NCBI GenBank assembly: GCA_023920165.1
Contig: CP089275.1
Location: 1,364,001-1,428,000 of the forward strand
DNA length: 64,000 bases
Reading direction: 5' to 3'
DNA from: Curvularia clavata
Lineage: Eukaryota
The position numbers and the translations under genes were made by a program. The stretch's first letter is position 1, and every line of letters starts with the position of its first letter. The notes below the pieces were generated by a model that was not told where the DNA came from, ran no database searches, and was given only the letters and a program-made list of their open reading frames with translations. Below, piece after piece: positions 6,114 through 45,262 of the stretch.

Positions 6114-6146
<33 letters not shown>

Positions 6147-6157
6147 TACACACACAC
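6114..6157. repeat. (CA)n microsatellite
   Basis: About 44 bp of CA repeat with two TA interruptions. Confidence 0.95.
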
Positions 6158-23000: not shown

Positions 23001-26000
23001 ATGCCAAAAAGTTGTCTGGTGAGCACGATAATTGACAGCAGCCGGGGTTCGCATCATTCCAAGTCAGATGCCTTGCCAAGGCGGAGCTTTCACGAGTCAT
23101 CTTGCATTAGTCCTGAGCCTGTTTGCGTGTATTTGTGTCAATATGTGCCAAACTTTCATGGGCTATTGAGTGGCTGCCCATAGCCAATCACAGCACCACT
23201 TCGGGCGACTCCCGACTAGCGCACTCATTCGGTAACTGACACTGGCTAACCCACTTACTCATGACGCGGTTCCTGCATATAGACAGACTACATACAGCCG
23301 CTGATCATCGGCACAGCCACCCTCCCCCCCCATCGTTCGGCTCTGCTTTCCGTCATCGCACCAAAACAGGCATCCGAGCCGTGGTTTCAGTAGCTCAAAT
23401 GGCAAGGGGCGGCCATGTCAGACGCCATGATCTGCCTGACCGCAGATCAAGTCCAGGGTAGGTTTGCGACATGTCGATGCAACAGCCCATCCCGCTTCTT
23501 TACAACGCCATCCAGAACCCTTATCTTGGCAAAAGGTCACCTACATACTCTCGGAACCGCAAGCGAAAGAGAACCCGGTGTCGCTAACATCAAAATCTCT
23601 TGGCACGGGAACAAGAATAAACGCGCCGATTTGTGGTACCCGCCCGGAGACGGCGCTGTTGATTCGAAATCACTTGTTTCCGAGCACATGTCTCGCCTTG
23701 CATTGCCAAATTCGTTTGCTGAAGGTTTGGCGAGGCCATCTGCAGTATGCAGTATTAGAAATAATCGTGTTGAGGACTTGCTCCACATTCCGACAAGCAT
23801 GTCAAAACACCCATACTCCTGCTCCAACTTTAGACATTGAAGACTTGGCCAGACTCAGAACGAACCCCGGCCCGTACACGGCAATAAGCTACTAGTATGT
23901 AAAGATAGGAATCCTGGATCAGCTAGCGGTTGAATTGATCGGCGTTGAGACGATTATGACAGCCCGCCTGCGTCTACCGTCTGTCTCCACTAATATCGGC
24001 CAGCCGTATCCACGTCCAAATGTCATTGCGAACAGCAGGGCCGGGGGAGAATACGGGGTGTCGCTATTACGGGAGGCCGTGGGACTGCTTCACCTCGCAT
24101 TGATGCTTCCGTTGTTGCATCGCCTTGGACCCGTGGAGCTAACGACCGCTTGCATTTCCTCAAAAGACCAAGATCGCCGGCATGGAACCCCAGGTATCCG
24201 CAGTGACATTGGACGCTTTTGCAGGCGGGAGAGAAAAACCATTATCGATCGTCTCCTGGAAATGGTGGGTGGCAGGAGGCGACCATGGCGGGCCGCTTGG
24301 TGTCTGATCCTTTCTCAAATCATGGTACGTCAGATGTGTCGAAACAGAGCACTAAAAGCACCCTAACGTCAAGCTTGATTCCCGCATGGCCTTTCCCTGC
24401 GACTGGACTTTGTTACTGCTTCGGAAACATTGCGAAGCCATGGTACCCGCTGTCAAAGAAGGAGCAAGGTATCCCTTTTTTTCGCCTACCATGCCCACTT
24501 ACGACATCTCATATATACCATACACGTTTCAAAGCATGCATGCTTGATTGGTTTGGCTCTTCATATCCACCACCTCCTTTCTCATGACGTCAAGCTTTGA
24601 CAGCTTGGGGCCAAGGCCAAAAAGTATGGTTCAAGATAGTTCCGGGGCTACATCCGCTCAACGTTCCCCGCTGTCATGCGACAGGGAGTGAATGCAAGTA
24701 ATTCGTGGGCTCCCAATGCCGTCTTTCATGTTGGGTTGCGCACTTGCAGCATAGCAAAAAAGCTAGAAGCGATCGGCTACCTAGCGCGGCCCGCAAAGGG
24801 TTCTGAGTCGTCTCCGCTGCACGTTATTCGGTGCCATGGTTGTCTCCCTCCCCCAACCTAAGCGCAGATAGGCGCATAATGTCCAGCACTCACGATTCGC
24901 CAGCCCATCATGTGACACCGGAGCTGAGCGTAATACGACAAGGTTTACGGTCATGCAAGGCTAAGGTTTGTTCTGTGTGCATGCAATGTGCAGATCGTAG
25001 AAGCAGAAAAGAGGGCACGAGGAAGCTTCCAAACTGCTGCAGTAGTGCGCTTCTTGTGGCTGGCTAACGGTGCCAGCTCCGCGGCCTGGGAAGCGATTTC
25101 TTTTTTATCCCTCCCGTACCCGCGCGCCCTTTCCAGCCCCCCCTTCCCCTCTCTAATACCCTCATTTTCTAAGTGGAGGCCTTGCAAAGGCGCCCAGCCC
25201 GAAGATCAAGCGAGAATATGGTTAGTCGCCTATTGGGTAGTTTGAAAGTATACACGTGCCCTGTGGATACAAACAGGCGTGTTGATGGTTGTGTTTTTTC
25301 ATCTAGAACATGATACTAGAACCTTTTTACACGCTACGTGTCCGAAGTGGGGGGCGTTTTAGAAAAACAATAGCGCTCTAGATATCGCTTCTCTGCAAGC
25401 GACCAGATGGTGTTGTATTGCACTCAGTTACCTCACCGTATCTGGGATACATGTAGAAAGGGGGGGCCCTTACCAAGTGGGTACGGCGTAAAAGAGGGGT
25501 AAGTGTAGTTCACACCATCAAGCCTAGGCCTAGTAGGTGGAGAAAGAAAAAACAAAAAAAATAAACGACTGACTAGCTTGAACGACTGCTCGCCGCTACT
25601 TCCCGAGCGATTAACGGCAAAAAGAAATATGTGGGAAAAGAAGAGACCGCAGGTTTTAGTGGGGGGAAGAAGTAAGTGAAAAAGGTGTGAGAAGACAAGT
25701 ACGTATAGTATGCTCTGTGCTTTTGATTGTCGATTGCGAGGAGTTTTTTTTTGCAAGATTGATGTAAATGATGGTCTGAGCTACAAACACTGCTTTGTAT
25801 TTCACGTTGTCGCATGTGCTAGTATGTTATGAGTCACTCACTGTTCAGACGCAGATTTTTTAAGAATCTGCAGAAGATACTGTTTGGCTCAGGAACTTGT
25901 TACATGTCGAGATCTCTCTGTCTGATTGTTCGTCTATACGTGTATTCGTGCTCTGCTCTGCTCTGCTCTGCTCTTTCTTTCACTATCTTAATACAAGAGA

Positions 26001-27836
26001 AGAGATGTATTCTCAAATCAAACAAGCTATCGAATGTTATGTTGTAGTATGTCCTCACACCTGTTTTCTCTTTAGGTTCAGATTAATATAGCTATGCTGT
26101 TCCCGATCACTCTCTGCTCTTCAATCGTATCAGTGATGCAATAGTCAACTCATATCTACCTAAGCTCTGGTGTATTCAATCTCGTGCCTACTTTTCCTCA
26201 TCTCCTACCAGACAGCGATAATTAAAACAACATGAGACTTCTATCTATGGTTGAAAGCAACTCTGTGCAGCAAGGGATTCTTCCTTATTCAATCTTGTGA
26301 AGAATCACACGGTAAGTAGACATGGCAGCCGTCACAGTATAAAGCTGTTCAACATGTGTGTCTTTATATCTAAAATATTAGGGTATTTTAGATATATCGG
26401 ACGTGCGAGCTGTAGGGTTCCACGAGCTTAACAGAGTATCATGTCGTCTTGTGGAGACTTGTTTGAAAAAAAAAGCTTTTTTGCTTACTCGGACACCATT
26501 TGTAGGGTTTTCTCGTATTTTGAGATAAATGGAGCTGTTTCTCACAGAGCAATTCAGAATAAAGCAGCGCTTCAGACTGAGAAAGAGGGAGTAGAGACAG
26601 TTTCAGAGAAGGTCGAAACACATTCTGGCATGGAAAAGAATAATGTACTATATACCTAATGATATAAACCCACAATATGGTGTCTACTCAACATCACTAC
26701 TGATATCATGTTGATTTATGCTCCCTATTAGATTGTAGACTTAACAAACTCACGCTCTTGTATATCTGGCCTCTCTTCTTGTAGAATCCATGTCAAGCAC
26801 TTTCCTACATCAATGTAGTTCTGATCTATTCGTCTTCCTTTGTCTTCTGAACATACTCCGCGTACACCTCTACAAAAAGCGCACTTTAGAGACACTTGCA
26901 CTAGCCCCTGAAGTCTCTCCTGCATCTCCTAAAATCATAGCAGCGAATCAAGCTCTTCTTCTTGTCTACCACGTCCAGACTTTCTGACAACCAGTCTTAT
27001 GATTCAACTGACGGACACTTTAACAACCAGTTCAACTCGCAGTCGTTCTGTTATCGCAGTCTTATGCGACCAATGAACAGAATCTTTGAATCTCAAATTA
27101 ATCAAATTAATTATTGGCAAGTCGCGACTATACACAGAAGACAATGACTCCCTGTACATCAAAGTCATCATATCCGCAGACCGTATTTACATGCGAAGTC
27201 GAGATTCCAAACAGCCCAAACGACTCGAGCCAGTCTTATAGCAGGGACCTTGTACGATAGACATCAACTCTCTCAACTTTATCTGGCCTGGTGTTATCTA
27301 AAACCTTGGTTTTTCTAGTCACTGCTCGTTCACTATGACTGCTCTTCTTGGGTCAATCTAATTGAGGATTGGCCACCAAGTAGATCTCATGGCAGAATAT
27401 AGTATACGTAGATTCAGCTAGATGATGGGTTGTCTGTGGAGAGTATGATGTGTGATACTTGAGATAGATTCTGATGGAGAGGACGAGGAGAAATGTCGTT
27501 CTGGAGCTGTTATGCGGTTTTTGGAAATTCCACCAATTCGGATCTACATAGATAACTTGGCTGGCTGTTTAGGAGAGAAATAGGTTGTCTGCATCGTTCT
27601 AGCTACGAAGACTGGACGGGTGAGTAGTTTGGTGTTTCTCAAGTCATTTGTGCTCGAGAAACTTAGTGCTCTTCTCGAAAAGATTTACCTAGTGGACAAG
27701 AACCAAGATGAAGTATCAACTTTCTTCCTCTTGCTACAATGACTCTAGTTCCCCCAAAACTCAACTTCCCCACTCTTCCTCTAGCAACTCTAATTTTCCA
27801 ACCCATCAACCAAACCGCTCTCTTCTCTCCCACCCC

Positions 27837-28490
27837 CTACAATTCCCTCTTATGCACGACCTCCTTTCCACCTCCCTTCCCTACCAACTCCACCCCCACC
27901 TCTGGCTTCTTGACTAACGTCTGCAAAACAACACAATACCTCTCCGTCAATTTCCCCAGTTTCTCCAACTCGTCCTCTGTAACCTCGCCACCCCCCTCCC
28001 TCTCCCCCAGCTCAACCTCAAACCTCAATCTAATCCCTTTAATCCCCACGGGCGCCTCCCTATCCACTCCCAAGGTGCCTCTGAAATCCAAATCGCCCTC
28101 TGCCGTGACCGTGCCCCCGATGACCGGAATATTAAGTGCCGTAGCCACAGCTTTGAGCGTTACACCGGAGCAAGCGACGAGAGCGTCAAGTAGCATGTCT
28201 CCTGAGCAGAGTTCACCAGAGATGGCGGGGTCGGTGCCGCCGGCTTTTTGGTGCAGGCCGGCGATGCGGTGGGCTGAGCTGATGCCCGGGGCAGACGAGA
28301 GCTTGCATGTTATGGAGGTGGCGTCGAGGGAGCCGGTGGATTTGAGGGTTACGAGGGCGGACGAGGGGTTGCTGCGGTACGATTCTTTGATCGGGGCTGT
28401 GTTTTTGAGAAGTAATTAGTGGTTAGAAGAGAAGAATAGAGGGGTTTATTGCGTGCCTTGCTTTTCGCGAAGGGCTTGCGCGGCGGACAT
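27837..28490 (-). CDS. OsmC/Ohr-family protein
   Basis: Spliced MSAAQALREKQ|APIKESYRSNPSSALVTL...GELCSGDMLLDALVACSGVTLKAVATAL...TERYCVVLQTL. Requires a GC-AG intron 28456-28397. Confidence 0.88.
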
Positions 28491-28706
28491 GGTTGTGGCT
28501 GTGGTTTAGGTCGTTACCAATGACTTTTGGACAGGAAACCGATCAAAGAGATGGTAAGCTGTGACAGTTTAGATTTCTCTACATAGCGGATCTCATTTAA
28601 ATTATATCTATTTGAGCTTTTGATGCGGGCCGGATAATAGCAGACGTGGAGGCTGCCCCGCATATGGCAGGTCCCGAGGTTCTACTGCTGTTGGTTCGCG
28701 AGCTCC

Positions 28707-28731
28707 ATCACGTGACATTGTATCACGTGAT
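28707..28731. promoter_or_regulatory. Paired E-boxes ATCACGTGA(C/T), candidate bHLH sites
   Basis: ATCACGTGAC at 28707-28716 and ATCACGTGAT at 28722-28731, about 220 bp upstream of the OsmC-like ATG. Confidence 0.4.
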
Positions 28732-29035
28732 GTATGACCACGTAGCTTATAGATAAACAATAACGGCGTGCTCTATGTCATATAAGTACAAACTAATAAT
28801 GTATTTAGTAAGAATATTACTAAGGAGTAGCAAGTAGACTACTCAAACAGCTTCTCAGCTCGAGGGTGACAGTTGCGCCAAGAGGGGTTGCCCGAGAGCG
28901 CCGAGATTAGCGTCAGACATTACTTTTGGAAGGCACCTCCGCATACTTTCCTCGTATTATTATCAATAATAGACTGCAGCTAAGTCCGCTCAGCAGGCTA
29001 TTCAAACTGCCTATGTCTGATACAAGTTAACCAGC

Positions 29036-30520
29036 TCACCAAACTCCGGGTATCAGGCGCCAGCGGACACGACGGCAGTACTCTTGCCAGTACTTGCCAT
29101 ACTTATCGTGGCATCGCCTCTCGTCTCGCAAGCAGCGGTGTATAAGTAAACCCAGCATAAAAAAACCATAGAACCATACCAGCGGCCTCGTAGTACCAAC
29201 TAGTGCGCACATAGCAAAGCTCATAAGGAGATCGCCTACATAATTTGCGTGTCGCGACCACCCCCACCATCCGCTATAAAGCAAGATGCTCTCGTGCACT
29301 TTTCCATCTGTTGTCTTGTATCTAGCCCGGATGTATCGCGGGGGCTGTCCGAAAATAACACAGTTCCCGTTGCTGGTGCGGACTCGATCCTTTTGGTTGT
29401 TCGCGACGCGGAACATTATATATCCAGCCAGGCCCAGCCCAAAAACAATTAGGAGATAGATTCTGGATACTACGGTTGGGAAGTGGCCTAGATACTGCGC
29501 CTGGAGCGTGTAAGTAGCTGGGATCCAGACAATGGACCCCCAAGCCAGATAGAAACCAAAGTGGTCATGGGCGATGTCAATTGTCCGTAGGTACCAATTC
29601 TCGTGAACGAAAAAATCTACTACATAGATTCCATGCAGTATTGTGACAAGGACAAGCGAGGGCGTGATGACATGGTATGTTTGATACTGGTAGGCAATGT
29701 TGGATATGTCGCTATGGTCAGAGTCAGTCAGTCCTCCGTCACCATCCGTAGGTAGATATTGATAACAAACTTACATAACAGTCCAAGAAATCATGCCCAA
29801 TCTGCCTACCGTGAAAAGCTTTATATCGAAGTCATTTCCAATCCTGGGGTTGTGTTCAATGCCCATGTAGAAGTCATACAAGAGAGAACCTAGTTACACA
29901 GTTAACATCACCAGCTAGCTAATCGTGTTGGTTTGTCAAGGTTACTACTTACCGCTAAATTTTCGATCTCGAATATGTGAGGGGACAAGGTGGCCCTTGA
30001 TAAAGGCAAAACCAGACACCAAGAAGCCGAAAACGTTGGCCACGTGCCACAAATTAATCCAGTTCTTCGGGACAAAGCCAGGGTCCACAACTCCCAGTAA
30101 GCAAAGGATGCCAAGAGTGGCATGTGTGACGAACCATGCATAGAGACCATTGGTTCTGTATGAGAGTATGTTACCACCCGCAGTCGGTTGCCCTGAGCTC
30201 TTCTTTCCAGGAAGGCCCCAGAAAAGAAGCGCCTGAAGAAGCACCCAGAAAGTATACCCAGCTAGAGCATGCCAGCTAGAGCGAAAGTAATAAGCTGGAA
30301 GGGTCGAGGAGAGATTTCCAGAATATGCAGCATAGACAAACTCCGCGACTGAGCCCTGGAATTCAATGATGATGATGCTGAATAGAATTCCTAGAAGAGG
30401 CGTCGCACAGACCAGGAACGCGGAGAGGACAGAATAGCCCAATGATCCTCGATTGCAGGCTCGACCCCAGATAGCTGACTTCTGCGGTTCATTTGCTACG
30501 TGTACAATACCCGCCAACAT
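29036..30520 (-). CDS. DHCR7: Sterol Delta7-reductase (7-dehydrocholesterol reductase/DWF5-type; ERG4/ERG24 superfamily)
   Basis: Exons 30520-29953, 29889-29775 and 29711-29036. Motifs WGRA, YDFYMGIEHNPRIG, ENWYLRTIDIAHDHFGFYLAWG, FRVANNQKD, SGWWGWSRHANYVGD and HRCLRDERRCHDKYGKYW match my recollection of DHCR7 better than Erg4/Erg24. Start codon uncertain. Confidence 0.88.
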
Positions 30521-30946
30521 TCTGGATTTGGCCTTGGGACTGAATGTTTCACTCTTTCTGACGCAGTCTTGTTGGTAACTTGAGGCCAAGGGATAAAAAC
30601 TAACATTTGAATGGTCGATTGGTCGGTAAGGGCTAGCGGATATGCAGACCGACTGGATTTATAAAGGACTTACGGGTATGTTTCTCAGGTTAGTACTTTG
30701 AAGAAGAGGAATAGCGTCGGGAGAATTGGTTCGGATATTGTGCTTACTTTCTTACGATGGGGCCAAGCCCCAACGGAATCGGATTACGTTAATCTAGCCG
30801 GTATAGACTATAGCGCATGATGATGAAAGCTAGGTCCGCGGCTAGCTCATTTTAGTTATTGATCTTCATGCTGCAAGTGCCTACAAAAGGCCCCATTTAT
30901 ATCAAGCAAACACTGCCATTGGATATCTTGCTCCCTCTTACCCATC

Positions 30947-32190
30947 ATGACAACGCCCGTCTACAATTGCACTCTTTCGATCAGCACTATTCTCTGGCAG
31001 TCCGCTTTTCTACTTATCTACGCATGCGCAATAATTCTGGTTCCACCGAGAAAAAAGGTCTATCGGCGGCTTGGCGTTATTGCTTTAACCTACATCACCT
31101 ACGTCGCACAAACAAGCCTGCTCGAGACTTGTCTCAACCCGCACTGGCGAGGAATCGGGGCCCCCTTACTCTGGATACAGCTCCTCAGCGCAGCCGAGTT
31201 AATCACGATCTCTTCCGTGTCGCCATCTACCTTCCTTGACACTTGCCAAGCCTCGAAGCTCTCCACTGCTGCCGCTATCGTCCAAGGAATACTGTTGCTC
31301 TGGAATCTCAGAAGAATTGGGACCCCATGGGCAGCCAAAAATGTGCCCTCAAGGCCCCAGCAAAACCTTATTCAATTTATCGCCGACAGATTACTTCGGC
31401 TGTCTTTTGCCTATGTCCTATTGGATCTCTGTGTATCTGCCCCTGGTCCAAGTCAGCATCTATTGAAAGTACCAAAACAGACGTTGTGGAGACTGTGGAG
31501 CCTTTCAATTGAAGACGCCGTATTCCGAATAGTCGGCTCGATATCTTTCTGGATTACCGTAGCTCTTTTGCTATATTGTCTACACGGCACGGCAAATACC
31601 ATTGGCGTCATCTTGAATCTATGGCAACCCGGCGACTGCGCCCCTCTATTCGGGTCTTTTTGTGAAGCTTACAGCCTTCGTAAGTTTTGGGGGTAAGTCA
31701 AAGCCAATAAAACATATCACGCTAGCTAACATAAGGGAAACCTTGCAGCGTGGTCTGGCACCAGTGTCTCCGCCAAAGCCTTTGCGGATTTGCAGATGCA
31801 TTTACGCATTCATTGCTCCGTATACCACCGGGCACTCTGTTCTCACGCTATACACGGCTGATATTGGCTTTTGCTTTGTCGGGAGCAGTTCATTACGCTT
31901 CGGACTTGGCCATGGGCATACCGCTCCAAGAAGCCGGCGGACATAAATTCTTCATACTACAGGCCCTACTCATCATGTTTGAAGACTTGATGCAGTATAT
32001 TATAGACCAATTGAATCTTGACGATATTCCACGGGCTTGTTTCAAGCTTGTTGGATTCCTATGGGTTATATGCGCTCTGGCCTGGTCCACGCCAACCTGG
32101 TTTTATCCAATGCAGCGTTTAGGAGGAGACCCTTCTGCTCTATTGCCTTTCAGAGTTATGGTTTGGATCAGTGAATGGACCCGGGTGTGA
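30947..32190 (+). CDS. Membrane-bound O-acyltransferase (wax synthase-like MBOAT_2; Tri7/Pyr8-type)
   Basis: Multi-TM protein with PLFGSFCEAYSLRKFWG|VVWHQCLR and AFALSGAVH (catalytic His region). Intron 31693-31748. Confidence 0.88.
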
Positions 32191-32895
32191 AGCGGTTATT
32201 TTAATATGGAAGGTTTTTCAGTGCCTTTCCTATAGCGATAGAGGCCGTAGGGACCGAAGGAGAATATGTTACTGCTCCAGCCCCCTATAGTAGAACAATA
32301 CTTAGGGGTAGCTATCTACGGTTGTGTATAAATTGTCTTGTGTGGTTCTACGGTAAGATGGTCACGTAGTCAGAGTCCTCTTTAGTAATAACTCTCTTTA
32401 CGTATGGTAGTTGTAGATAGGTTATCAATCTTATTCTTCGTAATTTAGTTAGTATTTATAATAGGCTAGACGCCTTTTGGTGAGCTCTTCGATGTTATTT
32501 CGGTGCGCGGTCAAATAGTCCGGAAATAGGCCATAGCACCCGAATTCTGCCTATCTAAACCGCATTCAGAGGCAGCGGTCAGACATAACGCTCAGATCAA
32601 CGGGAGAGCATGTTTATCTGATCTGTAAACAAATTTACGCTCCTGAGAAGATGGCTACTAGCTCTCTATCGCACACAATCTGGGTTACACCCAACATTGC
32701 TGTTGGCATAACACTCTCTTGAGTACAGCCCCTTACTATATTTCCTATTAGCTAGTGTAATTCAGTGCTAGTCTACGAAGTGATTATATGAGAAAGCAAT
32801 AGTCTTCTTTTTTTTTGTTCGTAACACGCTAGCCTTAGCCCTAGTAGATTTATTAATCATAGAAGTAATCTCTGACTCTTGCAATAGCCCATGAA

Positions 32896-34563
32896 TTAGT
32901 CAACGAATTCCCAAGATACCCGGTCCCAACCGCACCGCCTTCGTATCTTGATACCAACTGGATCCTCATGAGCTGCCGGTTCGCCGACTGCAGAGCCGAG
33001 CATGGGTGCGCTCATGATGGGTATTCTAATCGCCATGTTCGGGCCGTCAGCACTACGCATATCGTAGCCAAGACAGAGAATCAGAATTAGCCCCAGAATC
33101 TCGGACTGGGCAAGATGCCGACCGGGGCAGATATGCCGACCGGAACCGAACGGGATAAATGCAGAACGCTGAGAGCTCGTCGCAGTGTCAGGCCATCCAA
33201 TGAACCTTTCTGGTCGAAATTCTGAGGCATCGGGTCCCCAGACCTCTTCCAGGCGGTGTGTGACCCCCGCAGGCATCATGACTTGCGATTCAGCCTCGAT
33301 CAAATGCTGAGCTCCGCCATGGCGGCCTCGGTTCAGAACCACATCCTCTGAAACCAATCTTGTCAACAGCGCCTGCCCGTTCAGTCGACATGTCTCGCGA
33401 TAGCACGCCATCAGCAGCGGGCATTTTCGCCCTATCTGACTGGCACTAATAGTAACTCGCCTGGAGTCGGTTGGAGATTCCTGGGACGACACTTCTGCTA
33501 ATGCCATGCACTCGTTGCGGATCGCTTCCACGAGGTCCAGGCGTGAGAATACGTGGATAACAGTCCAGAATAACAGTGGTATCGTGTTCACAGTTGCCAC
33601 ATGCAACATGGCTACTTCGCATCTGGCAATATCTCTCGCACCCGTGTTTCCATAATCGCGGTGCACTCGAGCTCTTATACGCGATATATCCTCAATTGTA
33701 TCCTGCATTGAGACTTCAAACAGTGGAGTCAGAGCTGAAACGAGTCTCTCCCGAGCTTTGTAGGCTTTGAATGCGGTTATACGTGGAAGAATATTGACCA
33801 GTAGTCTTTGGGATCCGTTCTTGAACGACCTGGAATAGTTATTGACACTATCCGATTCAGTGACAAGGTAACATTCTTCTTACCATAGATCATCTATAAG
33901 CTTCCGATCACGACTCAGTGGACTTGGCGAACCATAGAGTGCTCTGCCCGTAGCAATTGTTAGAGCGATACCAAGCCATCTGTACAGGTCAGAGATCTCC
34001 AGCTCTTCAGCTTGTGGTATCTCATCATCTAGATGCTCAACAAGCGCCCCAAGGGCGACAGAGTTGAGACGAGCCAGAGGTTTCCCAGTGAGCGCTGGTC
34101 TGGTTTCATGCATTAAGCCACTGAGCATTCCAGAGTGTATAGCCTGCATAACACTAGGACTGAGTCCTAGAAGAGGTCGGGCTAGAGGAATCAGTAACGG
34201 CTCGAATGACATGGCACGAGATGAGAGTGCCTTTTGCATCAGCTTAAGGTCGAATATAACATGAATGTTGCCCATGAGCATTGGAAGGGCGGCGATATCG
34301 ACGGGATCCTTCTCACTAGACCTTGTTAGTAACCTAGGGGCGTAGTGGGTGTGTCTGCTGTCTGTTTGTCCATACTAGAGGTGGTGAAAATATTCGATCT
34401 GTTGAGTCGCCATGCCTATAATGTGGCCGATGAAAGGTATCGAGGGTTTCAGTACCGTACGATCATGATGCGGCTTTCGATTCTTCCCAAAATAATAGAA
34501 TAATAGGGGAGCTGTCAAGAAGAGGACAGCATATACGAGTTGCCTCCAGATTGATTGAGACAT
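32896..34563 (-). CDS. Cytochrome P450, CYP7/CYP8-like (I-helix xNT type)
   Basis: Exons 34563-34376, 34315-33884 and 33829-32896. N-terminal TM, PFIGH, I-helix ATVNTIPLLFW, ExxR (ETCR), FRPERF, heme FGSGRHICPG. Confidence 0.92.
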
Positions 34564-34851
34564 ATTTTCATCGAGCCAAGATATTGGAGAACAGGATGAA
34601 CTAGAGTTGGGCTGAAATGCGATAGATGTCAAATGAGGAGAAACTATGTATGCGTAGATAATCTCGTGTTACCAGCCTCTCTCCACTATTAACTAGGAAT
34701 CGGTCGTCTTTGTGCAGCACAGGGCCGCATTTCTCACTTTCTGACCCTTGTAGCCTGTACGGCGTCTTTCGACACCAAGCGCGGTATAAATGCCGCCTGC
34801 TCCATAAATTCAGAGAATAGCTGACTCATGTAGGAAAGCTGCGGTGTATTA

Positions 34852-34978
34852 GGGCGTGTTTGGTAGCTCCGGTTGCAGATTACGCACTAGACAAGGTCTC
34901 AATATTGCGCGTCAGCGCTAATAAGCTCAATTCCAAGTTATAGCGCTGTAACTGCAACTGGAGCTGTCAAATAGGCCC
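34852..34978. mobile_element. Tourist-like (PIF/Harbinger) MITE, 127 bp
   Basis: Imperfect TIRs: GGGCGTGTTTGGTAGCTCCGGTTGCAG versus reverse complement of the right end, GGGCCTATTTGACAGCTCCAGTTGCAG. TTA flanks both sides (34849-34851 and 34979-34981). Confidence 0.8.
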
Positions 34979-35215
34979 TTACTAAGTCATTGAACTTCGG
35001 GTCCATATTCATCCGACCTTCATAATGACTTTACAGCCTGCTTCTGTCCATCTGCCAGCAGCTCTAATAATTGTGTACTGCTATTCCATCTCGCCTAACT
35101 GCTCATTCGGGATATATATTGGGCAGGCAGACGACTGATTCGGCGATTTCGTTCTCCTTCAAGTTTGATCCCCCTTATTGCTCATTTCTTTGATCCAGCC
35201 GAGTTCTAATTCATA

Positions 35216-36880
35216 ATGAATCTATCAATTTGCTATGATTCATTATACCGTATTGCTGCTGGCGGAGTGTTCATCGCTCTTTGCTTCGGTATCTTGCGCA
35301 TCCTTGAGTACATAGTTTGCAACACCTGTGGAGAAGAGCCCCAACCTGTATACAGCCGCATTCCATTCCTTGGACATGCACTGGGCCTGGTGAGGCATGG
35401 CGTCTCCTTCTACGAAAGACTACAGTGAGTTGTGTCATTCAAATTATACTGTGCCACAGGTCATGCATTACAGCAGTCGGCTAACTTAATCATGAACAGA
35501 GTGTCATCAGGATTGCCAATTGCTACTGTGTTTCTTGGTCTTCAGAAGGTTTACATTATAAATTCCCCAGAGCTTGTCTCTCATGTCAATCGTGCGCCCA
35601 AGGCTATGAACACGGCATTACCATTCCTTGTCGTTGTTTGCGGAAAGCTGTGTGGCATGGAACAAGACGACCTAGAAACTCTGATGAAAAACCCAACCGT
35701 TCGAGGCTCGCCCTGGCGAGACATTCAGGAGTGTATCCATGCTCACTTGGATGCTGGATCTTCGTCCGGAAAGGAGATTACATCCCGAGTTGCCAATGAG
35801 TTATGGAAAGGTATTGATGAGTGTAGTCAGAGGAAGGGGACGGCGAATCTTTTGAAATGGCTACAAGGGATATTCGCCCACTCGACAGGGCATGCTGTGT
35901 TCGGCCCAACACATTGCCTTGCTCAAGATCCAGCGATCATTGACTCACTATGGTATGTTGTCGCGTGTCAATAGCCGATCCAACAATTATCAATATTCTA
36001 ACCTTCCAGGATAATGGCAAACGGTCTCAAAAAGCTCACTATGTGGCCATTTCCGTCCTTTTCGGCGCGGACAGCAACACAGGCCCGTGAAAAGGTCGCG
36101 TGCGCTTTAGAGGCATATTTCCGTAACAACGACTTACCTCTGACTAGTCATTCAGAGATCGTCAAGAGTCTTATGCAGTGCATACACAAACACAGCATGG
36201 GTACTAAGTTCGCTGCCAGATTTTTCCTAGGCTTGATCTCTGGATTCGTTATCAACACAGTGCCTGCTGCCTTTTGGCTGATAGGACACATCTCAGAGGA
36301 CGAGCAACTGAAAGCCATGATCAGAGAGGAACTCAACCAAGTGGTCACTTCGGATACTTGCGGCAATCTGACTATCTCTCCCGAAGCTGTAAGAGGTCGA
36401 TGCCCTTACCTGATGTCCACATGCCATGAGGTCTTGCGACTAATCAGCTCTTCAACGAGCACTTTCTTCATCCATCAAGATACCTACCTCAACAACAGAT
36501 ACCTTTTGAAGAAAGGAGCAATCTTACAAGTGGCATCTACAGCAATTCACTCCAATACTGATATTTGGGGCCCGGCAGCGCAAGCCTTCAAACCAGATCG
36601 CTTCGTCAAGCCGCAAAAGGTTCACCCCTCAGCCAACCGCACCTTTGGCGGAGGTATCACTCTCTGCCCCGGCAGACAGCTCGCGATGAACGAGTTGATA
36701 CTAACAGTCGCCATGATATTCCATACTTTTGATGTTGAATTCTCGCCAGAGACACCACGACTACCGGCACCGATGGTTACTGACATGCTGTCCGTGAAGA
36801 AGCCTGTGACAGACCTCAAGATCAGAATGTTACGCAGGCCTGGAATGGAACATGTTTCGTGGGTATTTCGCGAACCATAA
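35216..36880 (+). CDS. Cytochrome P450, CYP7/CYP8-like (paralog of 32896-34563)
   Basis: Exons 35216-35424, 35500-35952 and 36010-36880. PFLGH, I-helix FVINTVPAAFW, ExxR (EVLR), FKPDRF, heme FGGGITLCPG. Confidence 0.92.
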
Positions 36881-37524
36881 GGAAAGTGTAGACAGACGGG
36901 CTACGAGGAGTTTCACCACGATGAATATTTTCGAGCTATCGACTGGACCAAGTCTTTAGCATTCTAGTAATTAGCTTGTAACATCAAAATGCTTCTATCT
37001 AGTTACCTCTGTTTTCCCATGTTCTCATTAAACGGAAGGGCCTTGGATAAAATCTGACCTGTATCTGCAATAGGTATCGCATCAGCCGACCCGCCCGTGT
37101 GGGTTGCGGTGCTGAAGCATGCCCTAGTCTAACATAATTCATTTATGCTTGTTTCATAGCCGTTGATCTGCGTATCCGCTAGATTAGATCTCACTAAGTC
37201 TGCTAGTTTTTTTTAGTGCTTATACGGTTATCGTATTCTCGGTCTTATGTTAACTGCCGAAAGTATATTGTTATAGCATGTAATCCCTCCGAATGTAGAT
37301 GTGTTTACATGAATCCACTGACTCGTCATGTAAATCGTATCCATGCATCGGTAGGGGACGGTATACGTCTAGACACCTGTTCAGGATTGTTGCCAGGGAG
37401 GTATTTTGAGAAATAATCGGCTACGATAGACCCTGTATCTCTTATATCTCTCGTCGCGACCTGTTTGGTGGTAAATCAATCCTTCTTTTCTCTTTACCAA
37501 TCGCTTATTCATCCATCACTCAAA

Positions 37525-39277
37525 ATGATGGATGGTTCGATATGTAAAACTAGCCTGGCAGGTCTCGCCTTGGCAATCATTGTCTCAATTTCTGCCCGCT
37601 ATTTTCTATGGTCTAGTGACATGAGTAAAATTCCGTTGATAAATCCTCCAAGTTGGTACGACCCGATGAACCTTGTGGGGAGGGTGAAATTTGCTCTTCA
37701 TGCGAAAAACTTGGTGGAACAAGGTCTGCAGAAGGACAAACCCTTTCGGCTCTTGACCGAATTTGGAGAGCTTACCATGATGCCGGCCAAGTACGCCCCA
37801 GAGCTCCGTGTTGATCCAAGGCTGGATGCCTCGGCCGTAATTGATATGGTATGTACGAACCCTATATATTTCATTTCCTCGATTCAATTCTCAGGTTAAT
37901 ATCTTTCGAGATTACTCAATCCCATCTGCCTGGGTTTGAGGGATTCCGCTTAGGAACCCCAGATGGGCATAATACCCGTGAGATTGTAACTAAGCATCTC
38001 TCAAGCTTTCCCGGTATGATTGTTGCATCTGATATAATGTAAACCATGTCTAAGGTAACGGTTAGATGAAGTAACAGCGGCTCTCTCTGCCGAATGTGAC
38101 TCTGCTTTGATAGATATCTTGACTGATTCTCGAGGTGAGTAGAGTTAATGCGGAACCACAACTATATTTGGCTAACGGTTGGATATCATATTAGAATGGC
38201 ACGAGGTTCAGCTGAAAGAAACAGTGATGATGTTGATCGCACGCATGTCTGCACGCATTTTCCTTGGCGATGAAGGGGCACGGAACGAGGCTTGGCTCAA
38301 GATCACAAGAGAGTACACAACCAACGGATACATTGCTTCAGCGATCCTACGCATTTGGCCTAAGGCCCTGAGACCGCTTGTCAACATGATCCTTCCCAAG
38401 TGTCACCAGTTACGGGCTCAAGTCATGGAAGCTCGCAAGATTGTCAACGAGATCATTGACAGGCGCCGCAAAATTAAAGCAGATGCTCTACGTCAAGGGC
38501 TTTCTGTACCCGTCTTCAACGACGCTGTAGAGTGGTGGGAACAAGATACCAAAGATGAAAGCGACAAGTATGACCCAGTCATCGGCCAGCTTGTACTCGC
38601 GCAATCATCCATTCACACAACAACCGACTTTCTCACGCAGGTCATTTTGGATATTGCAGCCAATCCGGAGGTCAAAGGTCCACTGATCGCGGAGATTAAG
38701 CAGGCGAAGAGCACCTATGGGTGGTCTAAATCTGCTCTGTACAGTATGCGCCTTACTGAAAGCGTTATGAAAGAGAGTCAACGGATGAAGCCCATTGCAC
38801 GTTGTAAGTTTGTTATTCCGATGATCCGCCAGCTACGTCCAATACCTAACCAGAGGAAACTCAGGCACAATGAATCGAATGGTACTGGCGGATATGAATC
38901 TTTCTGACGGCACGCTGCTAAAAAAGGGGACTCTCCTAGGAGTCTCGGTAGACCGCATGTGGGATGGATCTGTCTACGAGAACCCCCAGAAATGGGATGG
39001 TTGGCGCTTTTATCGCAAGTATCAGCAATGTCCAGAGGCTAGGGACGTTCCCATAGTCAACACTGAGCCTAACTATCTGGCCTGGGGATATGGAAGACTG
39101 GCTTGCGCTGGCCGCTTTTTTGTCACCCAGGAGGCAAAGGTAGCTCTGGCAAATTTGTTGTTGAAGTATGACTGGGAGATAGTCTCATCTCCATCTGATA
39201 CAAAAATCTCAGAGTTTGGACTCGTGTTAGCATCTAACCCCAAGGCTAGAATTAGGGTTCGTAGACGTGTTGAATAG
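37525..39277 (+). CDS. Cytochrome P450, CYP68/ent-kaurene oxidase-like
   Basis: Exons 37525-37848, 37911-38013, 38066-38134, 38195-38803 and 38865-39277. HLPGFEGF, I-helix AQSSIHTT, KESQRMKP, WDGWRF, heme WGYGRLACAGRFF. Confidence 0.9.
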
Positions 39278-39619
39278 TCCACTAGTAAAACTCATATATT
39301 GCATTACTGAGTTATTTACTTTCAAGTTTATATAGTTGATGTAAACTTGGTCCCTTTGTTATCACTTGTCTTCTCTTCACGTGGATAAGGCTAAGCGGAA
39401 TAAGGCTGATATGTATATGCAATAAAGTTAACCAGTGGACTATCCTCGGGACTACTTTCTTTGGTCCTCACTATAACGAGGTAGCGCAGAGACATGAGAT
39501 ACTCCTCGATGACCCAACAAACGAGGAGGTCAAAAGCGAGATCATGAATGAGGAAATGTTGATTGGCTCTTGTATCGAAAGAGCCCATTTTCCGAGATAG
39601 TAGAATATACTAGCTCCAG

Positions 39620-39973
39620 ATGAAAGTTGAGAAAGCAAGATGCAGCTGCTACTAGGAGCAGGATCAGGGACAAGATCCAGGCGGCTGCTAAAGCTTCTGC
39701 AGCAGCTATGAATATCCAGGAGGCTACCAAGGCCCTGGGGGCTACCGAGGTCGCATACACGATGGCTACTAAGGCGGCAGAACTAGCCATGAATAAGGCT
39801 ATGAGCCTCAGATATGTCACCAATTTGGAATCAAACTCTTCGTAGATTCCCATAGATTATCCATGGACTACGGTTCGGGCCGTGGATGGATCCCGTTATT
39901 GTAGGGGTTCGAAAACAGAGTGCTTTCAGAACTCAGATTGGTATTGAAACACGAGAAAATTATGGACGAGTAA
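39620..39973 (+). pseudogene. Degenerate G/Y/Q-rich ORF with RIP-like nonsense mutations
   Basis: Frame from ATG 39620 reads ...CY*EQDQGQDPGGC*...PGGYQGPGGYRGRIHDGY*GGRTSHE*GYEPQ... All five internal stops are TAA/TAG, as expected from CAA/CAG. Confidence 0.4.
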
Positions 39974-41853
39974 GTTATCTACTGTCTTAAGTCTTTTTCC
40001 GACTTCTTTGTATAGTAGACTAGTAAGTGGGTTGTCCTTGGCGTCACGGTTGGGTTGCTGAATGTTTCAGCCAATATGAGAGCTTAGATGTCACAGGCAA
40101 TGGACATAAGGCTCAGAAGATAGCCCTCGGCCTAGTAAGTAAGGCTGAGGACCTGCATCCTATAAAAGCCACCATTCGATCCTTGGGATAAAACCCGAAG
40201 ATTCGACTGATTACTATTCTGATATTTTTGCTCCTACCTGCTAAACCCCTTACATTAGTACTGTAATTCTCTTAAACAAACCGTTCTTCTAGATTTGTAA
40301 GCGACACGGATTCGCGAGCCATCTACAATCTCACCAAAATTCAAGAACCACAGAGGTCTACATCTAGACATATATTCAATACAATCTCCCAAAAATCTAA
40401 TGGTTGCAACGGCATGAGCAAGACTAGTCGGATCGGTATGGGTATCAGTATCAGTAGATAGTGTCACTGAGAGGGCATATGGAAGTGCGTAGGACATTAG
40501 AAACACTGTAGATTCTGTAGACACTCATAGGCCTAGTACGAAAAAAGGATATACAAAATTGACTAAATATCGATAGAAGTTACCTGGTATTTATACCTCT
40601 AATACGGATCGTTCTTGGATCTTCCCCAGCTCTTGGTTGGATCTCGATAGGCTATCTCACTAGGATGAGTCTTGGGCAGTGAATGGTTACGACGAACTCG
40701 TGAGGTACGTTAATTGATGTAGAGAAAACAGATAGCCATGCCTGATATTAACCTGGTCTACAGAGAGGGGGTATAGCAACGTGTAGGTTTGGATAACGTT
40801 CAGATTAGTCCAGCTACATTTTTCGACCGCCTTGGGATCTGCAATACACTGACAATACCCTTCTCGCCATTGTTGGGACGAAAGCACATAGTGCCAGCGG
40901 GATATGCCATGGAACGTCTCAACATCTTTCTCTTCGATTTCATCGACTAAATCGCACGCTCTATTCAATGATGCCAGATGGTAAACAATTACTTTATGCT
41001 CAGACTTAGCCATGTACATGTCGGACAACTTGTTTCACCACCAAGCCGCCCATTCCCACAGGTGCATGTTTGCTTCATTGTGACGCCCCTCTCTTGTTTC
41101 GTCCCAGAAGAAGAAATGGTTCTGAGCCATGTAAACCCACATGTTCATTCTCCCCTTCCGGTCTCTTCCAGAGGATGGGGTCACCAAAACACATATCAAA
41201 GCATAGCCCGGCGGGCGACTTCCGTCTCCATCCATATAGGTAGAATCGCCAACAGTTCTCCTGCCTTGGTCAAGGCCAACCAGTAGAAAATAAGATACAA
41301 GGTCCACAGAAAGACCACTTGCGCCAATGGAAAAACAGGCCGTTAGATGCCTTTTGATAAACCCGACAACTCTAATCGTTTTCGAAGTTGCAGCAGCACA
41401 ACAAAGCAAGACGGTGTAATAAAGACGAGGAACGTAATGTGTAGAAGAGACAAACAGACTATTTTGCAGCATGGAGTGAATAGAAGGAGAGAAAAAGCAA
41501 GTATGGCAAGGACACGACAACGCGTTCAAAAAATAAGAGACAACAAGTTTGAGATTATTCTGACAAGGAAACTCGGGTATCGTGCAGAAGAGTAGCCGCA
41601 GAACGCACAAGGGTAGCGGCAGCCAGGACACAAAATTCCTGGGTGCCAAGGAGCCCTCTTCCTGGTCAGCTGGCAAGCTGGGCCAGCACAAGAATCCAAC
41701 ATGGATGGTCAATCAAAAGCCTCGTGGAGACATGTAGACGTTGGAGAAAGGGATGGAAGGGTGCATCGTCGAGGGTGCATATGGAAGGTAAGGACGACAA
41801 GGAAATGATCATGGCGGGGTCATAATGGCAGAGGCCAGAGAAGCCAATCTTTT

Positions 41854-42874
41854 CTACAGCAAGATGAGGTAATTGCTGGGCGCAATACCGGTCTCGCCAT
41901 TGGGCTTCTTGGCCTGCCACCATCGACCGCTGACGTCGGACACTTCGAGAATATCGTGCTTTTGGAAGCTGATTTCGTTTGCGTCATCTGGGTTGGCCTC
42001 GTAGCTGTAGATGGCCTTTGCACGGTAAGGGTACTCGATGGTGGCTTCTTGCTGAGATTCTTCGGGTGCTTGCGACGAGATGGCGCCGAAGGGGGGTGCG
42101 GACGAGTTGCGGGCATTTGCGCCGACAGGGCCGCCTGGGTAGCCGGATACGGGAGAGGAAGTCTCGAAGCCATTGAGTTGGGCAGAGGTGTACATTTGCG
42201 GGGCGGCGTTTTGGGTTTCTGGGCGGTTGGTGTAACCGTTGGAAATTGGACGGGATGAGCGCGAGCCCGAGTTTTCCTTGTTAAGGGCGTACGAGTCGAC
42301 AAAAGTGCGGTGGCTTGCTTGGGGCTGGGATCCATAGTAAAAGATCCAGACAATCTGTTAATGTTAGTGATGGGTGGTGGTTGGATACCACTATATCTCT
42401 TACAGCAATCATAGAGAGCAAAATGTAGCCGGCGGCTGCCGCTTCAAAGGGAGTGACTGGCGAGTAAACGAGCGAGTTGACTGAGGAGGTGGTGAAGACG
42501 AGTCCAGCAGCAAGGAAGCCAACAATCTAAGCAGATTAGCAAGTGCGATTCGAAGGTGCGCGAGTGTTTGTACGTACGGCGACATGGTAGGTACGCTCAG
42601 CGTCCGAGGCGACTGTGACTGTGACACCGGCGATGCAGAAGAACATGAAGACGAGTGTCCACCAGGCGAAGTTGGGGAAGCCGCCATGGATGGCGGACAA
42701 TATGGAGCTGACAAAGGAAATGATCCAGGCGAGCTGCGGACTGGGTTAGCCATGGGAGTTTGGATGGGCTGTCGAGAGACTCACGATGCCGATGGAGATT
42801 GTGGCGAGGGCAAACGGGTCGCCGACGATGCGGGCGAAACTGAAGCCTGACGACCGCTGGCCGAAGTTGTCCAT
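41854..42874 (-). CDS. SHO1: High-osmolarity signalling protein Sho1 (4 TM + SH3)
   Basis: Exons 42874-42785, 42733-42578, 42526-42404 and 42354-41854. [13 protein letters not shown] and C-terminal SH3 [25 protein letters not shown]...[11 protein letters not shown]. Confidence 0.96.
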
Positions 42875-44481
42875 TGTGGCGAGTGAGGGAGTCCAAGGAA
42901 TGTGGTGGTGGTGTTGTCGTGGGTGTTTGGGTGTTGGCTGTGGGGGCGAGTGAGGATGGGAGGGAGAGGATGCGCGTCGGCAGAGTGGACCAGCGACGAG
43001 GGCGAGGCGCAGCGAGTATATGAATGCGTGGTACGGTAGAGCGGGCGGGTGAGCACAAGGCGCGGGCGGCGACTGTAGGCGGCTGAGGGGATTCGGGAGT
43101 GGGGAGAGCGTGTGTTGGACGGAGGGTGAGATTGAAGAGACAGGACAGGACAGCAGCGCACAGCACAGCGCAGCAGAGAAGCAAGCGGAGCAGCGAGCAG
43201 CAGGCAGGCAGGCAGGCAGGCAAGCGTGCGTTTGGAATAGGACGAGAGGAGCTGGTGCGAAAGAGCAGAGGTGCGACGGTTTCAAGTCGGACTTGGGGGC
43301 GCGCTCGATTGGCCGGCCGGGGCGCCCTGGGCCAGCCGGGGATTGCGGCGGGTCGCACGCGTATGCAAATGCCAATGTAATGTAATGTCATCTAGTCAGC
43401 CAAAGGCCTGGCCACTCTCGATTAACGTTCCCAATTTCTGGCCGTGGCCGTAGAGGCGCCGCCACACTGGCCGCCGACTTGGCTGTCTACGCACATGGAC
43501 GTTGACAGCCAGTACACAGATAGACGCCAGCACCGAAGAGGCTGCCTACACATGTCTTCGCATCCTATGCCATTCTAACCACGTCCAAGGCTGGCGGCGG
43601 TTTTGCTTCTGCGCTGGCTGGGCAGAAGCGTGTGGCCCAGGGACATTGCCTGCGACTAGGGGTCCCTCATGCATGCTCGATTGTGCGAACCCTTGGTGAA
43701 CCACGCCCTACTTGCATCTACACATACGGCCATCCCAGTCGGCCATGGCACGCCTCAGGGGCACCGGATACCACGGCCTGCCTTTGTCACGCCGTCTTGC
43801 ATTCTGTCGGTTCATGCCCACACGCTCTTCCAAGTCGCCGCCGCCTGCCGTCGTCCGTCGAGCGCCCTCGTATCTGCTCATCTCATGTACAAGCCACACG
43901 ACGCTGCCCGTGCGCACCCACAGCCGTTCCCAGCCATGCGAGACGGCGCTGAAACGTCTGGCCACGGCATGGCCCTCTCCGCAGCCCTACACGACATCAC
44001 CACCACATCACAGAGCCCCCGCCTGGCGCTTGTCAAGCCGCCGCCTGTTTGACCATGGCCGCCCTGACATGGCAAAATGTTTCTGTTCGCTCGTCAAGCA
44101 TCCAATTGCCCTCGCCCAGCCTCACTAGCCCCTGTCCCATCCGCTGGTTCCATTCGCTCAACACGACCCAAACATGCGTCGTACCTGACATCCGGTCCTG
44201 TCCAGGCTCTCTTCCTTGCCGGCGCTGGCGGCTTCCTCAACGCTGCCCGTCATGACGACAGTCTGCCATGCCGGCTTCGCCCATCCGCTTTCTGTCACAC
44301 ATGCTACACATGCCCTCGACCACAAAAGACGCCACATCAACGCGACATGCCTTGCAGACGTCTACAACAACTGCCCATTTCCCTTTCTAGCCTACGGCAA
44401 GCCCTCAGCCCCCGGCCGCTGTCCGTATCAGTAATTTCTTTTGCATGCTTCCATGGAATCTGCGACATGTGCTGACAGTTA

Positions 44482-45262
44482 TCACAATTCGTCATCTTCA
44501 CTGTCGTCTTCCTCTTCCGCTGCCTCTCTAGCTACTTCTGCCTCACCCCCATGCGCCCCCTCGTTGTCCTTTTCGTCGTCGGGCCGCCGTCTGTACTCCT
44601 CCCTCACCACCTCTCGCAGCGCCTTGGTAAGTCTCTCGTTGTAGTCCACCCAGCACCTGCCCGCACCCAGCACCATGACCTGCTTATATCTCTGGTTCAT
44701 AAGCCCGTTCCTCCGCCGCAACTCGGACATTTTGAGCGCTTGCTGCAGCTGCCGTGCCTCAGCTTCGGCAATCCGTGGCCGCAGCGCTGCAAGCTTGCTA
44801 AAACCCTCCGTCGTCGGTATCTGCTGGTCCTCGAGTGCTTTGAGTTGCGAAGCCGTCGTCGCAAAGCTAGTTGCGCGCTCTACCACTAATGCCGTCTTCT
44901 GTGCACTGCTGAGCCAACTGCCGTCCTTGTCCTTGTGCTCGTCATCGTCGTCGCTGTCGCTGTCGCTGCTGTCGGCGGCCGGCGGCTTGAGGACGTCCTT
45001 GTGCTTGCTTACTTGTTTCGTCAGCCCTAAATCAGAGGCTGAGCCATTGAGTTTGCATACATAGGTTGTTGGCCTCGTCGAGCAGCGCCGTCTTGCCTGC
45101 TAGCTGCTGCAGTGACTGCTCAATCCTGTGTATCCTATCCGCTGTAGTCCTTGGCTTGTCTTTGGCCACTTCCTGCGCACCACCCAGAACATATTCCAGC
45201 CGATCTAGCCGTGACTCCAATAGAGAAAATGTGAAAAGGACTGCCTCTTCGTACTCGTCCAT
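44482..45262 (-). CDS. ro-10: Nuclear distribution protein RO10-like (dynactin p24)
   Basis: N-terminus LLESRLDRLEYVLGG, coiled-coil body and C-terminal CWVDYNERL. Intron 45060-45012. Confidence 0.7.

Follow-up and report, generated by a model that had tools for sequence, protein, structure and literature searches.

A conserved five-gene block in Curvularia clavata encoding a DHCR7-type reductase, an MBOAT acyltransferase and three cytochromes P450: a candidate sterol-tailoring cluster

The fungal gene clusters for demethoxyviridin (vid), helvolic acid and fusidic acid are rich in cytochromes P450 and acyltransferases, and they modify scaffolds of the lanosterol or protostane type. The viridin-type cluster draws on a primary sterol intermediate and lacks a cyclase, and the fusidane clusters include an oxidosqualene cyclase. 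In vertebrates, P450s of the CYP7, CYP39 and CYP8B types act at C7 or C12 of Delta5 sterols or of the 3-oxo-Delta4 products derived from them. Here, we analysed a 64-kb stretch of Curvularia clavata DNA (contig CP089275.1, positions 1,364,001 to 1,428,000; hereafter the window), which contains a block of five genes encoding a DHCR7-type sterol reductase (g1), a membrane acyltransferase of the MBOAT_2 family (g2) and three P450s (g3 to g5). The five genes are a real conserved unit, more than a product of chance. On balance, we lean towards the reading that they form a self-contained, tailoring-only cluster acting on a sterol that the cell already makes.

The block is small (10.3 kb, five genes) and present in several crop pathogens. 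It pairs a putative Delta7 reductase, a type of enzyme without a primary role in ergosterol-producing fungi, with P450s for which the nearest characterised relatives are vertebrate enzymes of bile-acid and oxysterol synthesis. Because fungal genome mining starts from scaffold enzymes, it does not see a cluster whose scaffold comes from primary sterol metabolism.

A conserved block of five genes

We modelled the genes by joining stop-to-stop open reading frames (ORFs) through canonical GT-AG introns, which were short. The first-pass annotation of the window had described five intact, contiguous genes arranged as two divergent pairs plus one. The models bore this out, yielding uninterrupted proteins of 452, 395, 517, 510 and 505 aa in the arrangement g1(-)/g2(+), g3(-)/g4(+) and then g5(+). 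The annotated interval, 29036..39277, runs from the last base of the g1 stop codon (minus strand) to the last base of the g5 stop codon.

We searched metagenome contigs with the final g3 exon and obtained three loci (L001, L002 and L003). In L003 (12.6 kb), the five genes were all present, ordered and oriented as in the window, with no frameshift or stop. Positions 919-11545 of this contig aligned with window positions 39290-29005 in three pieces at 85.6-90.2% nucleotide identity (blastn), and the homology ended 31 bp past the g1 stop codon and 13 bp past the g5 stop codon. We took these limits as those of the block (29005..39290; 47% GC). The flanks of L003 (1-918 and 11546-12609; 918 and 1064 bases) had no match in the 64-kb window by blastn or tblastx. 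They were AT-rich (24-25% GC) and showed a strong dinucleotide bias of the type associated with repeat-induced point mutation (RIP), indicating that the block there sits in repeat-derived DNA and not between the OsmC-like and Sho1-like genes that flank it in the window. The L003 proteins were 95-97% identical to those of Ascochyta lentis. L002 carried g1 to g4 and, beyond them, an unrelated ORF encoding an AAA_16 domain, and L001 carried g3-g4, with at least 1.1 kb of RIP-like DNA (1-1159; 27% GC) where g5 would be. Conserved co-location, one mark of a biosynthetic cluster, was found for 5/5 genes in L003 and for 4/4 within the contig in L002. At the block edges, we found no terminal or direct repeats beyond short two-copy matches of chance quality.

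Conservation between the window and L003 was highest in exons, lower in introns and lowest in intergenic DNA. The divergent promoter region of g1 and g2 (30521..30946) was 78% identical, versus 88-93% in the flanking exons, and that of g3 and g4 (34564..35215) was 80% identical. The spacer between g4 and g5, which holds the g5 promoter (36881..37524), is an insertion site in relatives; L003 carried a 234-bp insertion at window position ~37296, and it is here that the RIP-like DNA of L001 takes the place of g5. No Upc2-type, SrbA-type or CGG-spacer-CCG sites were found in the three promoter regions, and the best candidate for a shared promoter motif, CGGTATA, was rejected as absent from L003.

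The ratios of non-synonymous to synonymous substitution (dN/dS) between the window and L003 were 0.13 for g1, 0.28 for g2, 0.19 for g3, 0.21 for g4 and 0.25 for g5, with exons free of indels and internal stops. The comparison with L002 gave 0.19-0.27 for g1-g4. All five genes are under purifying selection. Were the five genes unrelated accessory enzymes brought together by chance and without a shared function, the lack of a common promoter motif and of evidence for co-expression would fit. Such an explanation is very improbable and largely refuted by L003, where gene order and orientation are kept and homology stops at the block edges, as well as by selection on every gene and by the three-gene adjacency that accessions indicate in four named genera.

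Transcript evidence came from the assembled contigs of four public runs (X12, X13, X16 and X18) over 25001-45000; these are contigs only, so their depth cannot rank the genes. All seven modelled introns of g1, g2 and g5 (7/7) were reproduced as spliced joints at their exact positions. The joints of these three genes were carried by X12 and X13, two runs of a single study, and X16 contributed one g1 intron only. Spliced joints at the modelled positions indicate that the runs contain RNA and that transcription and processing of g1, g2 and g5 follow the models; transcripts of these genes were at low depth in the runs examined. No contig of the four runs covered 33005-35672, with only traces beyond, a gap that is not informative on expression, and none of the four introns of g3 and g4 was spanned by an RNA contig from these runs. 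The models of these two genes are supported by the length of g3, which at 517 aa equals that of the annotated Exserohilum and Ascochyta proteins, by the gradient of conservation described above, and by the restriction of indels to introns, those of g4 relative to L003 being confined to its first intron. Within the last exon of g4, one X13 contig (depth 2) held a 102-nt joint with CT..AC ends at 36307-36410, which would be an intron of an antisense transcript.

The encoded enzymes

We scanned 86 window ORFs against Pfam (16 of at least 80 aa in the cluster region and 70 of at least 110 aa in the flanks), together with 11 further stretches. The gene g1 (29036..30520, minus strand; exons 30520-29953, 29889-29775 and 29711-29036) encodes a 452-aa protein of the ERG4/ERG24 superfamily: PF01222 (ERG4_ERG24) matched its C-terminal exon ORF at 1.8e-58 (198.8 bits; cut-off 27) and its N-terminal ORF at 5.6e-09 (35.7 bits). 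The proposal that this reductase is of the DHCR7 type found support among its homologues, the best 120 of 425 being at least 53% identical in the C-terminal half, with most of the named ones called 7-dehydrocholesterol reductase. The C-terminal NADPH-site signature SGWWG..RH.NY.GD is conserved with a solved bacterial sterol reductase. The g1 protein shared 99.7% identity over 377 aa with a protein of Curvularia clavata, and 89-93% with proteins of Pleosporales and Fusarium. The annotated C. clavata reductase P0152 (568 aa) matches the RNA-supported model only to residue 377, and its 3' part is probably mis-annotated.

We built a tree of 83 DHCR7-type proteins, comprising named homologues, six cluster members and the window model, and leaving out unnamed metagenome rows and three fused models of more than 900 aa. 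Its basal part tracks the species tree through Blastocladiomycota, chytrids, Mortierello- and Glomeromycota, Saitoella, Pezizales (Tuber) and Leotiomycetes with four powdery mildews. Erysiphales are reported to have 24-methylenecholesterol, and Tuber and Taphrinales to have brassicasterol (PMC2878339). DHCR7 has been reported from Mortierello-, Glomero- and Blastocladiomycota, with the Mortierella alpina enzyme experimentally characterised (PMC10629195). The closest relatives of g1 are thus DHCR7-type proteins, including those of Delta5-sterol fungi. The g1 protein itself belonged to a clade of 48 rows with a long stem (0.48, support 100), in which fungal classes are mixed in a way unlike the species tree; within it, the Pleosporales and Fusarium proteins (seven rows, support 100) were sister to those of Pyricularia (support 100). 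The g1 protein is therefore of the DHCR7 type, from a lineage that is accessory and apparently prone to transfer, and we infer from this kinship that it would have Delta7-reductase activity.

The three fused models, from Fusarium fujikuroi, a Naviculisporaceae species and Podospora australis (P0043, P0086 and P0108), are ~950-1000 aa long and combine a DHCR7-type domain with FAD_binding_4 (PF01565). They indicate that the reductase in those fungi adjoins, or is fused to, an FAD oxidoreductase, which may be a different sterol-related gene pair.

Plants recognise ergosterol as a microbial signal, and the block might serve to remodel membrane sterols, switching part of the ergosterol to Delta5 sterols and steryl esters under some conditions, for example in planta. 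The vertical part of the DHCR7 tree consists of fungi whose bulk sterol is Delta5, in keeping with such a role, and the Magnaporthe oryzae gene MGG_03765, annotated as a 7-dehydrocholesterol reductase and a possible orthologue of g1, is reported to be induced during appressorium formation (PMC2441471). We nevertheless consider remodelling quite unlikely: three P450s exceed the needs of a change in bulk sterol, and the low transcript depth of g1, g2 and g5 does not suggest bulk lipid synthesis in those samples. The known sterol acyltransferases, of the Are1/Are2 type, moreover belong to another MBOAT family.

The gene g2 (30947..32190, plus strand; exons 30947-31692 and 31749-32190) encodes a 395-aa membrane acyltransferase. 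Its annotation as an MBOAT enzyme was confirmed by PF13813 (MBOAT_2) on exon 2 (8.5e-14; 52 bits against a cut-off of 25); exon 1 alone had no Pfam match. The protein was 84% identical to a Pyrenophora seminiperda protein named TRI7 in its source and to a 395-aa Ascochyta lentis protein, and its putative relation to Tri7 and Pyr8 rests on the source's name for the P. seminiperda orthologue.

PF00067 (p450) matched four ORFs of the block, at 5.1e-20, 8.4e-30 (g4), 2.7e-06 and 2.9e-13. The gene g3 (P450a, 517 aa; 32896..34563, minus strand; exons 34563-34376, 34315-33884 and 33829-32896) gave its best sequence matches among solved structures with human CYP7A1 (1e-13) and CYP8B1 (6.7e-11), and an alignment showed the I-helix motif NTIP..FW to be common to g3 and human CYP7A1. 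An Exserohilum orthologue of g3 (89% identical) was modelled with a predicted local distance difference test (pLDDT) value of 76.5 and a predicted template modelling (pTM) score of 0.80. Among the fold matches of this model, CYP7A1 took ranks 1-3, 5, 6 and 8, CYP8A1 (prostacyclin synthase) and CYP8B1 were in the top 13, and these two together with CYP51 made up the remaining matches listed; identities were 16-20%. P450 nomenclature asks for at least 40% amino-acid identity to a family member, a level that these fold alignments do not reach for the CYP7 family. Sequence and modelled fold together place g3 in the CYP7 clan (CYP7/CYP8/CYP39), at clan level only.

The gene g4 (P450b, 510 aa; 35216..36880, plus strand; exons 35216-35424, 35500-35952 and 36010-36880) shares 23% identity with g3 along its full length (E 7e-42) and carries an NTVP..FW motif; its second-ranked named Atlas cluster, CYP39A1, is a lead only. 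It is thus a distant relative of g3 and likely a member of the CYP7 clan. The first-pass annotation had likened P450s of the block to vertebrate CYP7/CYP8B enzymes. This comparison stood for g3, through its sequence, its I-helix and the fold of its orthologue, and g4 is a candidate CYP7-type enzyme.

The gene g5 (P450c, 505 aa; 37525..39277, plus strand; exons 37525-37848, 37911-38013, 38066-38134, 38195-38803 and 38865-39277) encodes a P450 of a clan different from that of g3. It keeps the Cys ligand, ExxR and the I-helix. Its family is large, with 1957 matches in a representative library, 1025 of them at E <=1e-10. The best relatives among the 1957 were from grass-infecting Colletotrichum (59% over exon 4 and 52% over the full length) and from Pyricularia pennisetigena (74%, partial). 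The closest full-length relative, from Colletotrichum falcatum, shares with g5 an unusual heme loop, W..G..ACAGR. Its CYP68 label is tentative: the protein was compared with a Fusarium protein named TRI1 by UniRef, to which it was 48% identical over exon 4 and 38% over the full length. CYP68 enzymes are described as including steroid hydroxylases (PMC10744122). We also considered whether a P450 of the block could be P450cur, the steroid 7-hydroxylase of Curvularia. This candidate was rejected, as P450cur is described as a CYP503A1-like protein of 516 aa with a best nr match of 62.5% (PMC10744122).

The Pfam scans agreed with the earlier observation that the genes lack a polyketide synthase, a nonribosomal peptide synthetase, and a terpene or oxidosqualene cyclase: none was found across the scanned ORFs of the 64-kb window. 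The scaffold-forming core enzyme that usually marks a fungal biosynthetic cluster is therefore absent from the block and the window at the level of Pfam. This leaves room for a split cluster with a non-sterol terpenoid as its substrate; the reductase would have been recruited for another polycyclic scaffold, and the cyclase would lie elsewhere in the genome. The position of g1 in a long-stemmed accessory clade of mixed classes, which is typical of recruited paralogues, would fit this alternative, as would the naming of MBOAT_2 enzymes and g5 relatives after sesquiterpenoid pathways (TRI7 and TRI1). It is made quite improbable by the transfer and conservation of the block in three contexts without a cyclase, and by the independent indications of sterols from the DHCR7 type and from the CYP7 clan.

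Distribution and genomic surroundings

We drew named holders of the block from 90%-identity clusters of g1, g2 and g3 homologues. An exact look-up of the g4 and g5 exon ORF translations in the protein collection matched 0/8, so adjacency in named genomes refers to g1-g3 only. Consecutive accessions occurred in four named genera: Pyrenophora (P. seminiperda RMZ69162/63/64, for reductase, MBOAT and P450), Ascochyta (A. lentis XPS78860/61/62, for P450, MBOAT and reductase), Exserohilum (E. turcicum EOA81981 and EOA81983) and Fusarium (F. proliferatum KAG4275196/97, on a 12.7-kb contig). Further members of the clusters came from Pyrenophora teres, Curvularia clavata and Fusarium agapanthi. The first-pass annotation had named a failure to find the genes together elsewhere as grounds for abandoning its reading; they are co-located in several genera as well as in L003.

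Diverged versions exist in two other genera, which are also those of the closest g5 relatives. Pyricularia sp. CBS 133598 has a reductase (60% identity; tag 08178) and a P450a (64%; tag 08176), and Colletotrichum phormii has both on a single contig of 540 kb, where their accessions differ by six. In C. orbiculare, a gene model of 807 aa joins an MBOAT-like part (42%) to a P450a-like part (42%).

The reductase and P450a proteins of F. proliferatum, F. agapanthi and F. xylarioides (P0154, P0155 and P0161-P0163) were 91-93% identical to those of the window, and the reductases of the first two nested within the Pleosporales clade of the tree. The Fusarium copies, on contigs of 4-91 kb, reflect contamination of the assemblies or else a recent transfer across fungal classes. 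Arguing against contamination, F. xylarioides has the protein under three accessions, on contigs of up to 91 kb. The block has been transferred between contexts, and was found in three that differ. Synonymous divergence between the window and the Ascochyta-like copy is only 0.19-0.31, the g1 gene tree within Pleosporales is unresolved and does not follow families, and the Fusarium proteins are 92-93% identical to those of the window. Together, these observations suggest joint movement of the whole block between lineages, and it is apparently mobile between distant fungi.

Every named holder is plant-associated, so the product is probably made for plant interaction. The same distribution would suit a block that makes no metabolite from the fungus's own sterol and instead modifies or detoxifies host-derived steroids (for example, phytosterols, brassinosteroids or the aglycones of steroidal saponins). 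Fungal P450s acting as hydroxylases of exogenous steroids are described as well known and inducible, examples being Curvularia P450cur and CYP68 enzymes (PMC10744122), and the block itself encodes neither a regulator nor a transporter. We regard a host-steroid function as unlikely. Plant sterols are already Delta5 and offer no obvious substrate for a Delta7 reductase, the characterised Curvularia steroid 7-hydroxylase is a different (CYP503A1-like) protein, and the tight conservation of the reductase with the acyltransferase fits biosynthesis better than detoxification.

The absence of a transcription factor or transporter beside the genes, recorded in the first-pass annotation, also held: none lies inside the block, and the nearest ones are outside the conserved DNA. 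These are a homeobox gene at 16.5-17.2 kb, the nearest DNA-binding gene, and an amino-acid transporter gene (Aa_trans) at 45.7-47.3 kb. The immediate neighbours are an OsmC-like gene (27.5-28.6 kb, minus strand) and a gene whose product, a membrane protein with four transmembrane helices and a C-terminal SH3 domain, looks like the osmosensor Sho1 (41.85-42.87 kb; coding sequence 42874-41854), with three introns confirmed by RNA contigs. Other neighbours in the window are of housekeeping type by Pfam: annexin, DHHC palmitoyltransferase, YjeF_N, carboxyltransferase, GH76, PROPPIN and septin. Small ORFs at 39.3-40.5 kb and 25.4-25.8 kb matched no Pfam family. GC content at third codon positions was uniform in the block genes (0.50-0.54), and 0.56-0.72 in the flanking genes.

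We made three further observations in the flanks. In the OsmC-like gene, all four runs (4/4) showed a 60-nt intron at 28397-28456 with CT..GC ends on the plus strand, that is, GC-AG on the gene's own minus strand. The Sho1-like gene (40919-43271) had a 3' untranslated region of ~0.9 kb and the highest contig depth of 25001-45000. The region 16000-22000 is GC-rich (54-58% GC) with a very strong GC skew (up to +0.29, then -0.20). Its long ORFs had no convincing Pfam family, only a sub-threshold mucin-like match, and it probably encodes low-complexity Ser/Thr/Pro-rich proteins.

A candidate sterol route and its relation to known systems

If the block is a sterol-tailoring cluster, as we favour, g1 would saturate the Delta7 bond of ergosterol or of an earlier Delta5,7 intermediate to give a Delta5 sterol of the brassicasterol or 24-methylenecholesterol type. 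In ergosterol, C7 lies within a double bond, so that CYP7-type allylic hydroxylation at C7 is impossible before Delta7 reduction, a step that would turn C7 into an allylic CH2. By analogy with CYP7A1, CYP7B1, CYP39A1 and CYP8B1, g3 and probably also g4 may then hydroxylate the nucleus at C7 and/or C12. A further oxygen would be added by g5, and g2 would esterify one hydroxyl, the predicted product being an acylated polyoxygenated ergostane. The clustering of a DHCR7-type reductase with CYP7-clan P450s suggests this order of Delta7 reduction, nuclear hydroxylations, oxidation by g5 and esterification.

Several observations weigh against this reading. Among the best 120 of 425 g1 homologues, two are named C-14 reductase in their sources, and the closest solved structure to g1 is a bacterial enzyme labelled Delta14-sterol reductase (1.1e-48). 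The tree holds DHCR7-type proteins without ERG4 or ERG24 references, and the g1 clade is separate from the lineages with supporting sterol chemistry, so specificity may have changed. The best matches of g4 among solved structures were local ones to P450 BM3, its I-helix stretch alone matched no solved structure, and the 38% full-length identity of g5 to the TRI1-named protein is below the 40% usually asked for a CYP family. Within the block, no pathway-specific regulator was found, and the three promoter regions shared no 8-mers and three 7-mers, about the chance expectation. Adjacency in the named genomes was taken from accession order, locus tags and the lengths of contigs, not read from DNA, and in C. 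navitas the nearest MBOAT_2 homologue and the DHCR7 homologue are on different contigs. The substrate, the order of steps, the regiochemistry and the biological role are all matters that we infer.

A bolder version of the sterol-tailoring reading is decidedly unlikely: the block would be a mobile steroid cassette of cereal and legume pathogens that turns ergosterol into a Delta5 oxysterol ester, either as a hormone-like signal to the host (brassinosteroid- or oxysterol-like) or to hide the fungal sterol signature. Were it true, the Fusarium and Pleosporales copies would be nearly identical because a trait for interacting with plants had spread recently. The favoured reading, if true, would mean a new route to oxidised Delta5 ergostanes and a function for the scattered DHCR7 genes of ascomycetes. 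Yeast already supplies the presumed substrate.

A cluster combining DHCR7, CYP7-like and MBOAT genes had no description in the full-text literature searched, a scope that excludes MIBiG and most subscription journals. Clusters that tailor sterol scaffolds are known; to our knowledge, a five-gene, cyclase-less block around a putative Delta7 reductase and CYP7-clan P450s is not among them. The vid and fusidane clusters are larger, with dehydrogenases and Baeyer-Villiger or KSTD-type enzymes, and we know of none that has a DHCR7-type reductase or CYP7-clan P450s.

At the level of single enzymes, g2 belongs with the terpenoid acyltransferases Tri7 and Pyr8 in PF13813, a likeness by family and source name, not by sequence comparison; the pyripyropene cluster is reported to have two acetyltransferases (PMC4434069). 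The reductase g1 is in the same Pfam family as DHCR7, plant DWF5 and the Mortierella alpina Delta7 reductase, and its nearest homologues are fungal proteins named DHCR7. Unlike those enzymes, it belongs to a divergent and patchy accessory clade in ergosterol-producing ascomycetes, where it is clustered and stands outside the primary pathway. Likewise, g3 resembles vertebrate CYP7A1, CYP7B1, CYP39A1 and CYP8B1 in its best sequence matches, in the fold of its orthologue and in the NTIP..FW motif, with NTVP..FW and the CYP39A1 lead as tentative counterparts in g4. Unlike the vertebrate bile-acid and oxysterol P450s, g3 is fungal, and at 16-20% identity the kinship is one of clan.

A parallel for the product comes from Achlya, whose pheromones oogoniol and antheridiol are acylated Delta5 sterols with oxidation at C7 and hydroxyl groups at other positions of the nucleus. 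Achlya is unrelated to the fungi that hold the block, and its pheromone genes are not known to be clustered. As a chemical analogy, and as a lead only, these pheromones illustrate the kind of product that the enzyme set of the block could make.

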